From Elusimicrobiota bacterium (lineage in GTDB: Bacteria > Elusimicrobiota > Elusimicrobia > Elusimicrobiales > UBA9959): DNA of 64,000 nucleotides. Of the stretch, positions 24,001 to 36,000 are shown one piece after another; positions within the stretch are counted from its first letter, which is position 1, and each line of letters begins with the position of its first letter. The DNA lies in assembly GCA_027340875.1 (NCBI GenBank), contig DAIENX010000002.1, positions 1-64,000 of the forward strand, given 5' to 3'. Position numbers: made by a program.

Positions 24001-27000
24001 AAAGGCGGCCCGCAACAGGAGACTTTATGGTGAAAAAAACGGAAAAGGGCGGCTTCGAGGAGAAGCTGGCCAAGCTGGAAGAGATAGTGGGCAAGCTGGA
24101 GGACGAGGGCACTCCTATAGAGGAGTCGCTGACGCTCTTCGAGGAGGGCGTGGCCATTTCCAAGGAGCTTTCGGTGAAGCTCGAGGAAGTCAAGCGCAAG
24201 ATAGAGGTCCTCAAGAAGGACGCCGAGGGCAAGCTGAAGCTGGAGAAGTTCGAGGACGAGCCGCAGTAGAATAGACCGTCATGACCGCAGATCGCTTGGA
24301 CCATCTTATAGGCACCGCTGCCGGCTTCGGCGTGGCCGCGTTCTTCATCTACCGACGCTTCCGCAGGAACTTCGGCCGCCAGCGGCTCAAGCGCGGCACC
24401 CTGAAGCTGCGCGTAGCTATCTTCTGCTCGGCGGGCCTGCTGATACTGGCGTCGACCCTGCATTCCATCGCGGCTGCGCTGGCCGCCCTTGCCGGTCTGG
24501 GCGCGGGCCTTGGCATAGCTTTCGCGGCCGCGCGGCATACGCGTTTCGAGGAGCGCGACGGCGAGCTTTATTATGTCCCGCATACCTATGCCGGGTTGGC
24601 CGTCTCCGCCCTGTTCCTGGGGCGCCTGCTCTATCGCCTGGTGTCCGGACTTTCCGCGCCGGCCCCGTCGTCGGCGGTCCTGTACAAAACAAGCGCCTTC
24701 GGTTCCGTCGCCTTCAATCCGGCCACGATGGCCATCTTCTTCATCCTGGTCGGCTATTATGTCTATTTCTACAGTTACCTTCTGCTCCGTTCCGGCCGCC
24801 TGACGGCCGAGGACCTGGAAAGCCGCGCTGCTGCGGGAGGGAAGGGGATATGAGATACTGGGCTTATATCAATAGCGAGATCAGGGGGCCTTTCGGGAAG
24901 GAGGCGCTGGTCTCCATGAAGGAATTCTCCGGGTCGCTTCTGCTCTGCCCGGAGGGCGGGCAGAGCGGCCAGACGGCCGACTGGAAGCCGGCCTCCTCTT
25001 TCCCGGAAGTGATGTCCGCGAAGCCGGAAGCGCCCGCCGCGGCGCCGCAGGTACCGAAGCCCGCCGCGCCGGGGGCCGAGTCACCACTGGCGCTGACCAT
25101 GCGCGGCTCCCTGATACTGGACCCTGAGATAGAGCAGGCCGCGATAAAGCCCGCGTCCGCTTCCCCTGCCCCCGCCCCCGCGGCCACCGTTGCCGTGAAC
25201 AGGAGCGTATTCGAAGCGCCCGCTAAGAGCGCCGGCGGCGCGGCCCAGCCCGAGCTGCTCGCCGGCAAGCTGGACCAGATAGGCGCCATGCTGCTTTCCG
25301 TTTCCAACGGCCAGACCCAGCTGCTGAGCAGGATGACCAAGCTCGAGACCGAGCTGGCCGCCCTCAAGGCACTCATAGTCCCGCCGCCGCCCAAACAGCC
25401 TTAATCCCGCCGACTTTTGCCTTCCGGTCTAGCCTTTTCAGTCTATTGCAAGACCGGTCTTTCCATTTTGTAGGATAAGGACAGGGGGATAGCTTCACGG
25501 TCCAGTTCATCGGCCGCGCCGAGGGGCGCGGGGCCGCACTGTCCCCGTCAATCAAAGGGGGGAAAATGAACAAGAACATGAGAGTAACGACGAAGGCCAG
25601 GCACGCCTATACGCAGGCGTACGCCAACTACCTGCGCAGCGGGAACCTGGAGGAGGCCACGCGGCAGGTGGCGCAGGAGATTTACGAGCACAGGGGCAAG
25701 GCCCCCGGCACTCCGGACGGAGACTGGGCGGAAGCCGCTAGGATAACGGCCGAATGGCCGGAGACGATAACGGAGGCCTCGGAGTCGCACCTGTTCGACA
25801 AGGCGCTGGCGAAGACGCGCGCCTGGCTGAAGGACGTGGAAACGGAGCTGGACTACACCAATCCGAACGACGCCTACCGCGCCCTGCGCGCCGTTCTGCA
25901 CGCCATCCGCGACAGGCTGCCGGTGCAGGAGTGCGCCGAGTTCGCCTCGCAGATGCCGGTGTTGATAGCCGGCATGTATTACAGCGGCTGGACCCCGGCC
26001 AACAAGCCGGAGAAGCTGCGCACCGAGACGGAGTTCTTCGGGAAGGTGGGCGCCGCGCTGCCGCCCGGGGCGGACCCGGAGCGCGTTACCAGGGGCGTAA
26101 TAGCCGTCCTGCAGAAGCATATCTCCCCGGGGGAGATGAAGGACGTGAAGAGGAACTTTCCCGAGCGCCTGCGGTACCTCTGGGAGACCGAGGGAACGCA
26201 CTGAGCCGGGAGGCGGGGCCGCTCCCGCCGCGGTGAGCGGGGGGAGCGGTCAGGCCTTGAGCAGCGGGAGCACGGCCTTCTCCAGGTCGCGCGCGAAGGC
26301 GGTGTTCAGCAGGTCGGCCGGCCTGCCGAGGGCCGTTTCCAACCCGTCGTCGAACCGGATGCCCGGGGAGGAGCCGGCGCGGCCGGAGCGGCCGCGCATG
26401 TTCTCCACCACGCCCAGCAGCGGTACCCCCAGCCTGCGGTAGAGCTCCAGCGAGCGCTCCAATACCGACCTGGCCATAACCGACGGGGTCGTCACCGCCA
26501 GCACCTCGGCCTTGGGCAGCAGCCTTATGGCGTCGAGCGCGGTGTCGTTTATGCCGGGGGGCATGTCCACCACCAGGAAATCAAGGTCGCCCCACAGGGT
26601 GACCGCCAGCATCTCCACCACCGCGCCGGAGATATCGGCGCCGCGCAGCGGCACCGCCCTGCCCGAAGAGAAGAAAGAGACCGACATGAACCTTACGCCG
26701 GACACCTCCGGCGGAAGAAGGCCCATCTCCTCCTCCGGGTAGGCGCCGTCGGCGCCCAGGGCCACGTGGGCTGACGCCCCGCAGAAGTCCAGGTCGGCCA
26801 GACCGGTCCTGTAGCCTTTCTTCGCCAGCAGCAGGGCCAGCGTGGAGGCCGTGACGCTCTTGCCTATGCCGCCTTTCCAGCCGGTGACGGCGATGACGCG
26901 CTTCACCCTGGCCAGCCTGTCTCCTATGACCGAGGGCCTCGGGTCTATCCTCGTCGGGGTCATTTTTCCCCCTTGAGGTATTTGATGTAGACGCCGCGGC

Positions 27001-33000: not shown

Positions 33001-36000
33001 GCGCTATGCCGAGGCCGCCCGCCACGAAGATCAGGTCGTTGCCGGCCAGCACCTTGACCGGGAAGCCCTTGCCGAACGGGCCGCGGATGCCGATCTCGTC
33101 GCCGGCCTCGAGGGCGTGCATAGCGTTGGTGACCCGGCCGGCCGCGCGCACGCAGAGCTCGAAGGAGCCGCGCTTGGTGGGGGAGGAGCAGAGCGAGATA
33201 GGGGCCTCGCCCACGCCGAAGACCGAGACCTGGACGAACTGGCCTGGCTCGTAGTCCATCGCGCGGCCGTTGTCCAGCTCTATCTCGAAGAGCTTCTCCG
33301 AGGGGGTCATCCGCTTGACGCGGATGATGCGGCCTTTCCTGACGCGCCAGTTAGAGTTGACGAGCTCTTCCTTTATCATGCGGCCTCCTTTACCAGTGCT
33401 GTAAGCGTTTCCTTGAGCCGGATGCCCGCCATGCAGGTCCGGGTGCACCTGCCGCAGCCGGTGCAGAAGAAGCGGTAGTACTTGCCGAGCGAGAAGCGGA
33501 ACTTGCGGTAATGGCGGTGCCGCAGGCGCTCGGCCTGGCCGCTGCGGAAATTCTCGCCGCCGGCCACCTTGGCGAAGGTCTCGACCTCGCAGGAATCCCA
33601 GGTCCGGACGCGCTTGCCGCTCTTCAGGTCCAGGTTCAGCGTGTCGGCTATGTCGAAGCAGTAGCAGGTGGGGCAGACGTTGGTGCAGTTGCCGCAGCCC
33701 AGGCATTTGTCCCCGATGGCCTTCCAGACCGGGCTGTTCTCGCTCTTGTCGAAGATGGCCGGGAGCTTCTTGCGGTCGACGTTCACCTCGTCCTTGAAGC
33801 GGGAGCGCTTGGCGTCCCTGATGGCGTAGAGCGCCTCCATCTGGGCCTGCGTGGCGGGCTTGAACAGGTTGCTGCTGTCCACCAGGTCGTCGCCGGCCTG
33901 GGTGTTCACGTGCGCCATGAAGACCTCTCCCATGTCGGTGAAGAACAGGTCGTAGCCGCCGTTGGGGAAGTTCGAGTTCATCAGGTTGCAGCTGGCGTGC
34001 TCGTCGCAGTACTCGGTGCACTCCAGGCCGATGACGGTTATGTTGTCCTTGCGGCGCAGGTAGTTGTAGTCGCGCGGTCTTTCGGAGAAGACGATGTTCA
34101 GGCACTGGATGCCGTTCAGGTCGCAGGTGTGGACTCCGAAGATGACGGTGTTCTCGTGCTCGAGCAGGGCCTCGGCGTTCTCCACGTGGCCGGTGCTGAA
34201 GCTCAGCATCGTCTCCTTCTGCGGCAGGAAGTACTTCTTGGGGGGCAGTATCGTGGGTATGTGCTTGAGGGCTATGTCGTTAGCGGAGGTGACCTCCGTG
34301 AAGGCGTAGTTGCCGTAGCCCTTGCTGACCGGCGCCACCACCTTGTGATTGCGCGAGAGCTTCACGATGAAGCTGTTAAGGTCGTCTTTTCTGAGGATGA
34401 AGTACCGCGTGTGCGTTCCCATAAGATGCCTCCGTGGCCGGGGCCCCGGCCTGGGACTTTCCGTCGGAAAATCCTCTATATTTATTGTGCAACATGGGGG
34501 GGCCGCTGTAAACAAGAACGGTCAACAGCGGGATTGAATTTAGTCAGGTCCCGGGGGGGAGTATGGTCAAGCCGCGCCCTGCCTTCGCCTGGCGCGCTGA
34601 CGGCAAGGATATCCGCTTTCGGTCCCCCCGGTCCGGTCCCCAGATAACTGGATTTGTACGATATTTGGCCTGCCCGGGCAAGTAGCCTGTCGCGGTTATT
34701 CTATAATAGTCAGGTATGAAGAAGCGCTTGGACGTCGCGTGCGTGGAACTGGGGCTTTTCGAAAGCCGCGAGAAGGCCCTGCGCGCCATAATGGCGGGGC
34801 TGGTCATCGTCAACGGGAAGCCGGCCGACAAGGCCGGCATGCCGGTGCGGGACGGGGACGTGCTGGACCTGGCCGCCCCCGGCTGCCCTTACGTCTCCCG
34901 CGGGGGGCTGAAGCTGAAAGGGGCATTGGAGGCCTTCGGGCTGGAGCCCGCGGGCAAGATCTGCCTGGACGTCGGCGTGGCTACCGGCGGTTTCACCGAC
35001 TGCTTCCTGCAGGCCGGCGCTTCCAGGGTCTACGCCGTGGACGTAGGCGAGGGCCAGATCCACGAGAAGATAAAAGCCGACCCGCGCGTGGTCTTCATGC
35101 CGCGCACGAACGCGCGCTTCCTCAAGCCGGAGCTTTTCCCGGAGAGGCCGGAACTGTGCGCGATAGACGTCTCTTTCATCTCGCTGAAGCTTATCCTCGG
35201 GCCAGTTCTGTCGGTGATTGCTCCCGGAGGGAAGGTAATAGCCCTGGTCAAGCCGCAGTTCGAACTGCAGCCTTCTGACCTGCGCAAAGGCATCGTAAAG
35301 GACGAGGAGACAAGACTGGGCGTGATGGTCTCCATGAGGGCTTTCCTTGCGGGATCCCTGCCCGGCGCGCAAGAACTGGGCCTGAGGGATTCTCCTATAA
35401 AGGGCGCGAAGGGGAACCTCGAGTTCCTCTGGCTGCTGGGTGTTTAATAGCTTCCCCCCGGAGGAAAAAAGAAAGGGCCCCTTCCGGGGCCCTTTCTTTT
35501 TTTAGGCTGTACGGCTTAGTAGCACTGACCCTGGTAGGTATAGATCTTCTCGGTCTCGACGGACTTGCCGGTGTAGCTGCCGAGCGTCTGATCGCCCTGC
35601 ACGAACCCGGCGGCCAGGTCGCGCGTGGTGGTCTGGAAGTGGAAGGTCACGTTCTGGTGGCCCCACTGGGTGACCCACTGGGTGTAGCAGTTGGGGACGT
35701 GCGGAGGCTGGCCCTGGAAGTCGGGGGTGTGCACCGCGACCGGGTTGGGCACGGAAGGAGCCTGGCGGCTGCCGATCTCGTCCTGGCCGAGGCCGGCTTC
35801 CAGCGTCTTGGAGGCGGCGGTCTCATTGGACTTAAGGGCGCGGCAGATGGTCTCCGGGCGCTGGTAGGTGCAGGACTCCCAGCCGGACTGGTCGGCGGAG
35901 TTAGTGACGACGGTCTTCATCGTGCCCTTCAGGCCGAAGTTCTGGCCGATCTGGGCGGGGGTGAGGTCGAAGGTCTCGCCGATGTTGATGTTCTTGTCGA

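Follow-up and report, generated by a model that had tools for sequence, protein, structure and literature searches.

HydG and a HypC-HydE-like fusion protein in a [NiFe] hydrogenase operon of Elusimicrobiota: gene content suggesting a maturation set independent of HypCDEF

Described maturation systems and the gene set of the window

Among the described systems, the canonical HypCDEF machinery serves the same client as the gene set considered here, namely a [NiFe] large subunit bearing four Cys and a tail at its C-terminus. The set lies within the window (the whole analysed stretch of 64,000 nucleotides from an Elusimicrobiota bacterium, contig DAIENX010000002.1) and resembles the canonical one in its end steps (HypA, a P-loop NTPase and an endopeptidase) and in a HypC-type domain whose N-terminal Cys2 makes it the likely delivery device. 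However, the HypD scaffold and the HypE/HypF carbamoyl-phosphate route to cyanide are missing, and the HypC domain is fused to a radical-SAM enzyme, with Gln replacing the His of free HypC. The HydE/HydF/HydG pathway of [FeFe] hydrogenases is matched by a true HydG with every cluster motif and by a radical-SAM partner of HydE fold, which retains 39 of 61 canonical-invariant HydE positions, CX3CX2C among them. At the same time, most genomes with the fusion are without HydF and the [FeFe] hydrogenase HydA, the fused HydE-like part belongs to a separate clade with a Cys-Cys-x-His motif, and its product is presumed to be mononuclear, in contrast to the 2Fe precursor.

HypX provides an aerobic route to the CO ligand from formyl-tetrahydrofolate, acting beside HypCDEF and yielding CO only. 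It is similar in being an accessory route from a defined metabolite to a diatomic ligand for [NiFe] maturation, but the window genome is without the whole HypCDEF set, and tyrosine would yield both CO and CN. The HypB of Thermococcus is of the Mrp/MinD type; the window's NUBPL/Mrp-family ATPase, which adjoins HypA and probably replaces the GTPase HypB, can be likened to it. This ATPase is common to canonical congeners and is not what is novel in the operon.

In the literature, the fusion appears to be mentioned in one preprint only, in passing, as a fusion of HydE to HypC, called unusual, from a Legionellales symbiont, encoded in a [NiFe] hydrogenase operon with HybD, HypA and HypB (bioRxiv 10.64898/2026.04.11.717937). 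The fusion is of the same kind and also lies within a [NiFe] operon, but that text deals with it in a single sentence, within a "full maturation machinery", mentions no HydG, HypD, HypE or HypF, proposes no pathway and contains no distribution analysis (bioRxiv 10.64898/2026.04.11.717937).

The operon and its proteins

Nine close-set genes of the minus strand fill the interval 26250..34422 exactly and encode a 3b-like [NiFe] hydrogenase, HycI, HydG, the HypC-HydE' fusion, HypA and an Mrp-type ATPase. The sulfhydrogenase ShyB/HydB-like 4Fe-4S beta subunit (33376..34422) starts with the ATG at 34422, preceded by GGAGG, matches PF17179 (Fer4_22) and, at 235 bits, stays under the equivalog cut-off of NF040829. 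The FAD/NAD(P)-binding 2Fe-2S gamma subunit (32537..33379, start 33379) matches NF006220 (290.8 bits), PF00175, PF10418 and PF00970, and the small (delta) subunit (31779..32522, start 32522), whose stop overlaps the large-subunit start by 1 nt, matches PF01058 (91.3 bits) and NF040836 (169 bits). The 3b-like large subunit (30451..31779, 442 aa; PF00374, 120 bits) has ShyA (239 bits) and HydA (233 bits) as its top NCBIfam matches, both below the cut-offs; the motifs RICGICSCGH and DPCISCSTH and the C-terminal tail, here of nine residues, are all present, as the survey had stated. It is followed by the HycI-type maturation endopeptidase (29985..30473; TIGR00072, 97.4 bits against a cut-off of 47.45; PF01750). 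At the far end of the operon stand the nickel metallochaperone HypA (26960..27361; NF003008, 145.8 against 125; PF01155) and the Mrp/ApbC/NUBPL-type P-loop ATPase (26250..26963; PF10609, 160.9 bits), whose ATG at 26963 overlaps the HypA stop. The ATPase is probably a HypB substitute; canonical HypB reached at best 23 bits in the window genome (cut-off 121). The HypA-Mrp pair also lies downstream of the hydrogenase operon in all three congeners examined, with unrelated genes between. The junctions Mrp/HypA/fusion, HypA/fusion/HydG and HydG/HycI/large subunit are spanned by unitigs from four DNA runs of one study, so the gene order is not an assembly join.

The assignment of HydG, the radical-SAM tyrosine lyase and maker of the Fe(CO)2(CN) synthon (28551..29927), was borne out by TIGR03955 (513.5 bits against 312.15) and by an end-to-end match to PDB 4wcx (502.9 bits). 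Its CX3CX2C (C88, C92, C95) and C-terminal CX2CX22C (C372, C375, C398) are invariant among 18 sequences. HydG is no specialised clade, the copies next to fusions being spread over both halves of its tree, and HydA-bearing fusion genomes have a single HydG for both systems; HydG alone is therefore no marker of the pathway. The established HydG product is Fe(CO)2(CN)(Cys), as against Fe(CO)(CN)2 in the [NiFe] site, and the exchange between the two is accounted for by no gene, which counts against the reading preferred below.

The fusion protein (27363..28541, 392 aa) combines PF01455 (residues 1-63), PF04055 (Radical_SAM) and PF06968 (BATS); it starts with MCYAIPGK, keeping the HypC Cys2, and its residues 84-387 align with Thermotoga maritima HydE, all in agreement with the survey's finding, as is the presence of PF01455 and PF04055 in all of its best 120 homologues. 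An AlphaFold2 model (pLDDT 90.7, pTM 0.89) predicts a HypC beta-barrel (1-52), a helix (54-78) and a HydE-like TIM barrel (about 100-390), and the top Foldseek matches of this model are T. maritima HydE structures (TM 0.82-0.87; 36-38% identity over 334-342 columns). The naming of the fused part as HydE needs correction in that it scores 224.7 bits on TIGR03956, below the cut-off of 254.6. In the tree, 84 fusion rows are parted from 8 canonical HydE sequences by one branch with an SH-aLRT of 100, which places the radical-SAM portion of the fusion in a clade of its own, sister to HydE and not HydE proper. Cys101, Cys102 and His104 are invariant in the fusion family and specific to it, with an invariant Arg at the position of His104 in canonical HydE. 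In the HypC domain, Gln44 replaces His in 8/8 fusions, in contrast to His in 12/12 free HypCs of the phylum.

Distribution of the fusion and of the canonical genes

The window genome (92.45% complete, 5.49% contamination) has two [NiFe] hydrogenases in total, the second of which is 3c-like and is encoded on contig C101 together with a protease of its own. The earlier claim that the canonical genes are absent from this genome was reproduced: profile searches gave zero matches for HypD and for [FeFe] HydA (Fe_hyd_lg_C), the best scores for HypF (38 bits against 466), HypE (22.9 against 251.6) and HydF (54.6 against 325.6) remained far below the cut-offs, and, as the fusion is the sole PF01455 match, free HypC is absent as well.

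Within the genus, HypD and free HypC occur in 19 of 20 congeners, with HypF in all eight of those tested. An orthologous large subunit, 67-89% identical to the window's, is found in 19/20, and the congener operon is syntenic with that of the window but without HydG and the fusion; the window genome and G415 have the same hydrogenase with HydG and the fusion instead of canonical HypC/HypD. In a sample of 401 genomes of the phylum, HypD accompanies free HypC in 139/140 genomes and is found in none of 13 fusion-type genomes, each with one PF01455 match (frame length or motif verified the fusion in 10 of the 13).

The species-genome collection contained 410 fusion loci, of which the best 80, from 80 other species genomes, were retained; their record titles name Planctomycetota, Omnitrophota, Elusimicrobiota, Lentisphaerae, WOR-3, Margulisiibacteriota, Patescibacteria, Spirochaetes and DPANN archaea. 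Counting related genomes, which are non-independent observations, a [NiFe] large subunit was found in 77/80 (not in G012, G032 and G044) and HydG in 78/80, in the fusion's own locus in 52/80. HypD exceeded its cut-off in a single genome (G038), where it and a partial HypF adjoin another hydrogenase. HypF exceeded its cut-off in 0/72 fusion genomes, in a search leaving out every fourth of the 80 (20), against 8/8 canonical congeners; HypE did so in none of five genomes of 96-98% completeness, among six fusion genomes searched including that of the window. HydA was present in 14/80 (66/80 without a match) and HydF in 10/80 (70/80 without). All five tested genomes that combine HydA and HydF with the fusion have a second, stand-alone canonical HydE, which in four of them is only a few kb away from HydA and/or HydF. 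At distances of up to 6 kb from the fusion, HycI was recognised in 27, HypA in 15, a 3b-like large subunit in 18 and Mbh-type membrane subunits in 14 of the 80 loci; no [NiFe]-linked gene was recognisable in 43/80, many with full flanks, and no conserved gene of unknown function reached 9 or more loci.

On these gene contents, a true HydG and the HypC-HydE' fusion are inherited together with [NiFe] hydrogenases and are mutually exclusive with HypC/HypD/HypF, and where a real [FeFe] system is present, the fusion set is an extra paralogue set.

Alternative readings and a possible route

The proposal that HydG and the fusion replace HypD/HypE/HypF gains support from the distribution of HypD (1/80), HypF (0/72) and the [NiFe] large subunit (77/80), together with the 19/20 canonical congeners, and we consider it probable that the two proteins form a self-sufficient, HypCDEF-independent set for [NiFe] maturation. 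Besides the ligand mismatch, the 43/80 loci that have no [NiFe]-linked gene nearby, the 14/80 fusion genomes with HydA, the HypD of G038, the three genomes that gave no [NiFe] large subunit and the unspecialised HydG speak against it. A partial replacement, in which they give only a part of the cofactor (e.g., CO or pre-loaded Fe), while a further protein that escaped recognition, or free cyanide/CO, provides the other ligands or fills the place of HypD as scaffold, seems rather unlikely: it would accommodate the mismatch between Fe(CO)2(CN) and Fe(CO)(CN)2, a HypE search covering six fusion genomes leaves some room for it, and the location of 43/80 loci apart from hydrogenase genes would allow further partners elsewhere, but HypD, HypF and free HypC are absent all together, HydG makes both CO and CN, and no such partner emerged as a conserved neighbour in 9 or more of the 80 loci.

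That the set serves some client other than the [NiFe] hydrogenase, for instance a very divergent enzyme of the [FeFe] type or a different Fe-carbonyl protein, with the [NiFe] enzymes matured by unknown means or inactive, is quite improbable. The HydA-bearing fusion genomes, with HydG common to both systems, speak for such a client, as do archaeal [FeFe] hydrogenases with odd maturation, although archaea with [FeFe] hydrogenases are reported to be mostly without HydEFG (PMC11216029). Moreover, Fe_hyd_lg_C and HydF are missing from most fusion genomes, those with HydA hold their separate canonical HydE, HypC is a chaperone known for [NiFe] large subunits only, and the neighbours of the fusion are HycI, HypA and [NiFe] subunits; the earlier worry about a hidden [FeFe] enzyme has thereby largely gone. 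An artefact, in which HypCDEF simply escaped assembly because the bin is incomplete or contaminated, or in which the contig carrying the operon is chimeric, is hardly credible: the completeness and contamination of the window genome and the lack of stated completeness for the 80 fusion genomes leave some room for it, but the same absence recurs in 79/80 and 13/13 other genomes, five of them at 96-98% completeness, canonical hyp genes were detected in canonical congeners every time, and the contig shows hydrogenase synteny with congeners and unitig-bridged junctions. The concerns about incompleteness and too few comparison genomes have likewise largely lost their force.

If HydG and the fusion do replace HypCDEF, HydG would cleave tyrosine and, as in the case of [FeFe] enzymes, use its C-terminal cluster to build a cysteine-ligated Fe(CO)x(CN)y unit. 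The HydE-like barrel would receive this complex, strip the cysteine scaffold by radical chemistry and keep a mononuclear Fe-carbonyl-cyanide, with no dimerisation for HydF; Cys101-Cys102-x-His104 on strand beta-1 may bind it. At some stage, Fe(CO)2(CN) would also have to be converted to Fe(CO)(CN)2. The unit would then be handed to Cys2 of the attached HypC domain, which would dock on the apo large subunit, followed by Ni insertion by HypA and the Mrp-type ATPase and cutting of the C-terminal tail by HycI. The gene content thus points to what may be a second way of making the [NiFe] cofactor.

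Hydrogenase operon and the genome that carries it

Nine genes that run in one direction, with ends that overlap or almost touch, occupy 34422..26250 on the minus strand of the window. Pfam and NCBIfam scans identified them, in the order of transcription, as genes for the beta subunit (34422..33376), the gamma subunit (33379..32537), the small subunit (32522..31779) and the [NiFe] large subunit (31779..30451) of a hydrogenase, a HycI-type protease (30473..29985), HydG (29927..28551), a HypC-HydE fusion (28541..27363), HypA (27361..26960) and an Mrp/NUBPL-type ATPase (26963..26250). 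The gene junctions are spanned by unitigs of four DNA runs, all from a single study. As the source sample may be among these runs, the unitigs show contiguity and not independent occurrence. The promoter/terminator scan yielded one promoter-like site upstream of the first gene (34512-34484, minus strand), with counts at the chance level.

The large subunit retains the RICGICSCGH and DPCISCSTH motifs and ends in a C-terminal tail of nine residues. Two elements expected of group 3b, namely an alpha/beta/gamma/delta set and the L1/L2 cysteine motifs of the large subunit, are found in the operon. For three of the four subunits (alpha, beta and delta), the top NCBIfam match is a sulfhydrogenase model, and for the gamma subunit it is NF006220 (cytochrome-c3 hydrogenase gamma), followed by sulfhydrogenase gamma models. 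The NCBIfam scores did not reach the equivalog level of sulfhydrogenases (239 against 700 for alpha and 235 against 690 for beta). Because its best models are sulfhydrogenase alpha, matched far below the equivalog cut-offs, the large subunit is designated here as "3b-like," a class that rests on NCBIfam matches.

The co-occurrence of HydG and a HypC-HydE fusion in a [NiFe] operon, which was the survey's finding, was borne out. Judged by its sequence, the gene at 29927..28551 is unambiguously hydG: its product scored 513.5 bits on TIGR03955 against a curated equivalog cut-off of 312.15, and it aligned end to end with the solved HydG of T. italicus (PDB 4wcx; 502.9 bits). The CX3CX2C motif (C88/C92/C95) and the C-terminal CX2CX22C auxiliary-cluster motif (C372/C375/C398) are invariant among 18 sequences.

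The genome of the window, whose 112 contigs total 2.8 Mb with a completeness of 92.45% and a contamination of 5.49%, was searched in six frames. Neither HypD nor an [FeFe] catalytic domain was found, HypF, HypE, HydF and HypB all remained without a match near cut-off, and the only HypC domain was that of the fusion itself; the absence of HypD, HypE, HypF, HydF and an [FeFe] enzyme claimed by the survey was thus reproduced. A second [NiFe] hydrogenase is encoded on contig C101 (locus L024, 2830-10183) by a 3c-like Mvh/Hdr-type set that comprises an HdrB/C-like CCG protein, an HdrA-like protein, MvhD, a small subunit, a VhuA-like large subunit (362 bits) and a protease of its own, likewise without canonical maturases. 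Since HypDEF and free HypC are absent from this genome, its two [NiFe] enzymes are left without the canonical supply of the Fe(CN)2CO unit.

Several other features were seen in passing. In a 622-aa open reading frame elsewhere in L024 (13689-15557, minus strand), Hint/intein-type domains occur together with two Tim44-like domains, which is an odd architecture. In the window, dnaE (DNA polymerase III alpha; 58068-61580, plus strand) is divided by one in-frame TAA at 60132-60134; the halves share a frame, and the stop occupies the place of an expected Tyr (…GTMV*QEQVM…). A strain variant or an error of sequencing or assembly is the probable cause. The open reading frame at 47514-52868 (minus strand; 1784 aa), with a high GC3 of 0.91, had no Pfam match at E ≤ 1e-8. 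A haem biosynthesis cluster (9265-20631, plus strand), with GluTR-like, porphobilinogen deaminase, class-III aminotransferase, URO-D, radical-SAM HemN-like and amine-oxidase-type oxidase genes, is interrupted by a two-component pair at 14207-15885.

Two parts of the fusion protein

The fusion begins with MCYAIPGK, matches PF01455 at residues 1-63 (50.8 against a cut-off of 28.5; on TIGR00074, 42.5 against 48) and continues as a HydE-like radical-SAM barrel. The hallmark of HypC is an N-terminal Met-Cys in which Cys2 is an Fe ligand, and M1, C2 and P6 are invariant in all 16 fusions compared. Some fusions (L070 and L099) seem to begin with GTG or TTG, which gives M-C-Y after initiation; open reading frames called from the first ATG therefore append spurious N-terminal extensions that mask the essential Cys2. 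At the His position of the (V/I)H(A/V)GFA motif, Gln is present in 8/8 fusions versus His in 12/12 free HypC proteins sampled from the phylum, and Q44 is invariant in 16/16 fusions. A function of this His in the iron site of HypC-HypD is presumed; in that case, a HypC part without the His would be in keeping with a role independent of HypD.

The AlphaFold2 model of the fusion, a confident one (pLDDT 90.7, pTM 0.89), has T. maritima HydE as its top Foldseek matches (TM 0.82-0.87). On the HydE equivalog TIGR03956 (cut-off 254.6), the window fusion stays below the cut-off with 224.7, five other fusions fall on either side of it (252.6-265.5), and canonical HydE copies reach 294-365. The HydE-like part does not lie inside the canonical HydE clade: in an unrooted tree of 92 rows (89 distinct), in which canonical HydE was sampled by only eight sequences, one branch with an SH-aLRT of 100 parts these eight from the 84 fusion rows. 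Of the 61 positions invariant in the eight canonical HydE, 39 persist in 90% or more of the fusions, the radical-SAM cysteines C113/C117/C120 included, which suggests that the substrate of the fused part is related to that of HydE. At ten further positions, the residue that all fusions share occurs in none of the eight canonical copies; these include Cys101, Cys102 and His104, located on the first barrel strand, and at the position matching His104 canonical HydE has an invariant Arg.

Distribution of the module and the hydrogenases it accompanies

The fusion constitutes a family, as the survey had claimed, and the family is large: both domains were present in each of the best 120 homologues, with one cluster member on a contig of 2.16 Mb, and 410 loci for the fusion were counted in a collection that represents each species by a single genome. 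Of these loci, the best 80 were analysed here; judged by record title, they come from many bacterial phyla and from DPANN archaea. Among these 80 genomes, whose completeness is unreported, the [NiFe] large subunit was over cut-off in 77 and HydG in 78 (one copy each, with a single exception). HypD, the expected partner of HypC, was over cut-off in only 1/80. The usual partners of HydG were also scarce, with the [FeFe] catalytic subunit HydA over cut-off in 14/80 and HydF in 10/80, nine of these ten being HydA-positive. HypF was over cut-off in 0/72 fusion genomes versus 8/8 canonical congeners in the same search; the 72 comprise 60 of the 80 (every fourth omitted) and 12 from a sample of the phylum, and G019 and the fusion-bearing congener G415 are one assembly. 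For HypE, the count was 0/5 among fusion genomes of 96-98% completeness.

The phylum sample (401 Elusimicrobiota genomes, with a HypC domain in 153 and HypD in 141) served as a control. Free HypC was accompanied by HypD in 139/140 genomes, the lone other genome being 78% complete with its HypC at a contig edge. The genomes with a low-scoring, fusion-type HypC had HypD in 0/13 and a single HypC domain in 13/13; nine of these are shown to be fusions by open frames 395-451 aa long and one by its motif, adjacent HydG and contig end, and the remaining three are inferred from the score alone.

The comparison could be narrowed to the genus of the window genome, in which 19/20 congeners have HypD and free HypC and G415 is the only congener with the fusion. 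An orthologue of the window large subunit is present in 19/20 congeners at 67-89% identity, and in G390, at 89%, it coexists with canonical HypC, HypD and HypF. In three congeners examined, unrelated transporter genes separate beta-gamma-small-large-HycI from a following HypA-Mrp, with neither HydG nor the fusion at that locus; the order in G415 is HdrA-MvhD-VhuG-VhuA-protease-HydG-fusion-HypA-Mrp. Within this genus, HydG and the fusion are a non-orthologous displacement of HypCDEF on essentially the same enzyme.

Service to an [FeFe] hydrogenase is the role that annotation would assign to HydG and a HydE homologue, and this role was examined in five genomes that encode HydA and HydF besides the fusion. 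All five have two HydE homologues: one is the fusion (252.6-265.5 bits), and the other, stand-alone and canonical (294-365 bits), lies a few kilobases from HydA and/or HydF in 4/5. Among the canonical congeners that possess HydG, G413 has a HydG-HydE-HydF set adjoining HydA. Another canonical congener, G442, has HydG without HydA; its contig stops about 700 bp past HydG, where the syntenic G413 has HydA, so it was rejected as a counter-example.

All open reading frames within 6 kb of the fusion were clustered for the 80 loci. This region contains the HycI protease in 27/80 and HypA in 15/80. The 3b-like large and small subunits occur there in 18/80 each, and group-4-like hydrogenases are represented by their Mbh/Mrp-type membrane subunits in 14/80; HydG and the fusion share one locus in 52/80. 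A hidden analogue of HypD beside the module was considered and rejected: no conserved gene of unknown function recurs in at least nine loci, and the families that do are all hydrogenase-related, apart from antisense ghost ORFs. At about 14 loci (L038, L046, L055, L061 and about ten more), HycI-HydG-fusion is preceded by genes for a ferredoxin-like protein and for membrane subunits that resemble Mrp antiporters. These are Mbh-type (group-4-like) operons, and the module therefore serves several hydrogenase groups.

Four observations oppose a simple picture. No [NiFe]-linked gene lies within 6 kb at 43/80 fusion loci, three fusion genomes are without a detected [NiFe] large subunit, both systems are present in one genome (G038), and HydG has no dedicated clade and is common to the [FeFe] system. 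A specialised HydG clade in fusion genomes was rejected, since the fusion-adjacent HydGs of HydA-less genomes are divided by the deepest starred split of the tree and are intermixed with HydGs of [FeFe] clusters; wherever an [FeFe] system exists, it and the fusion have HydG in common. The genome G038 (Omnitrophota; loci L062 and L132) combines three systems: on contig C4, HypD and a partial HypF adjoin a high-scoring (285-bit) large subunit, and a further [NiFe] enzyme on contig C1 has both the HydG-fusion pair and a HydA/HydE/HydF set close by.

Proposed route to the [NiFe] site and its meaning

The survey's claim that HydG and the fusion replace HypD, HypE and HypF is strongly supported at the level of gene content. 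In the route that we propose, HydG would produce a cysteine-bound Fe-carbonyl-cyanide complex, from which the HydE-like barrel would remove the cysteine by radical chemistry while keeping the mononuclear unit, for which Cys-Cys-x-His may be the site. The Fe unit would then travel on Cys2 of the fused HypC to the apo large subunit, Ni would be added by HypA and the Mrp-type ATPase, and the tail would then be cut by HycI. Such a route would need a conversion of Fe(CO)2(CN) to Fe(CO)(CN)2.

To our knowledge, HypCDEF are held to be universal for [NiFe] hydrogenases. We think it somewhat probable that the [NiFe] site has a second biosynthesis, based on radical-SAM enzymes, in which all CO and CN come from tyrosine via HydG and a HydE-derived enzyme traps mononuclear Fe-carbonyl-cyanide on a new Cys-Cys-x-His and passes it to its own fused HypC. 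In this reading, the module has been transferred among a dozen or more phyla of bacteria and DPANN archaea, serves 3b-, 3c- and Mbh-type enzymes and is able to displace HypCDEF in one genus. As a bolder corollary, the enzymes matured by the fusion may have a non-standard set of diatomic ligands. No prior proposal of HydG or HydE for [NiFe] maturation was found in the full-text literature that could be searched. In the accessible portion of one preprint (bioRxiv 10.64898/2026.04.11.717937), the fusion is named in one sentence and HydG, HypD, HypE and HypF are unmentioned; the available portions of PMC9431212 and PMC11216029 do not address HydG or HydE in [NiFe] maturation.

The swap within one genus leaves the idea open to direct testing on closely matched enzymes. 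The anaerobic origin of the CO ligand of [NiFe] hydrogenases is a long-standing question; if the proposal is true, tyrosine would be a defined metabolic source for both ligands in these organisms, and the maturation of both hydrogenase classes would be linked, functionally and evolutionarily. For the heterologous production of hydrogenases, the module would also provide a compact maturation cassette of four genes. In current annotation, HydG and "HydE" are taken as markers of [FeFe] hydrogenases, and [NiFe] enzymes are taken to be non-functional where hyp genes are absent, a practice that would be altered for the genomes of Omnitrophota, Elusimicrobiota, Planctomycetota and DPANN archaea.
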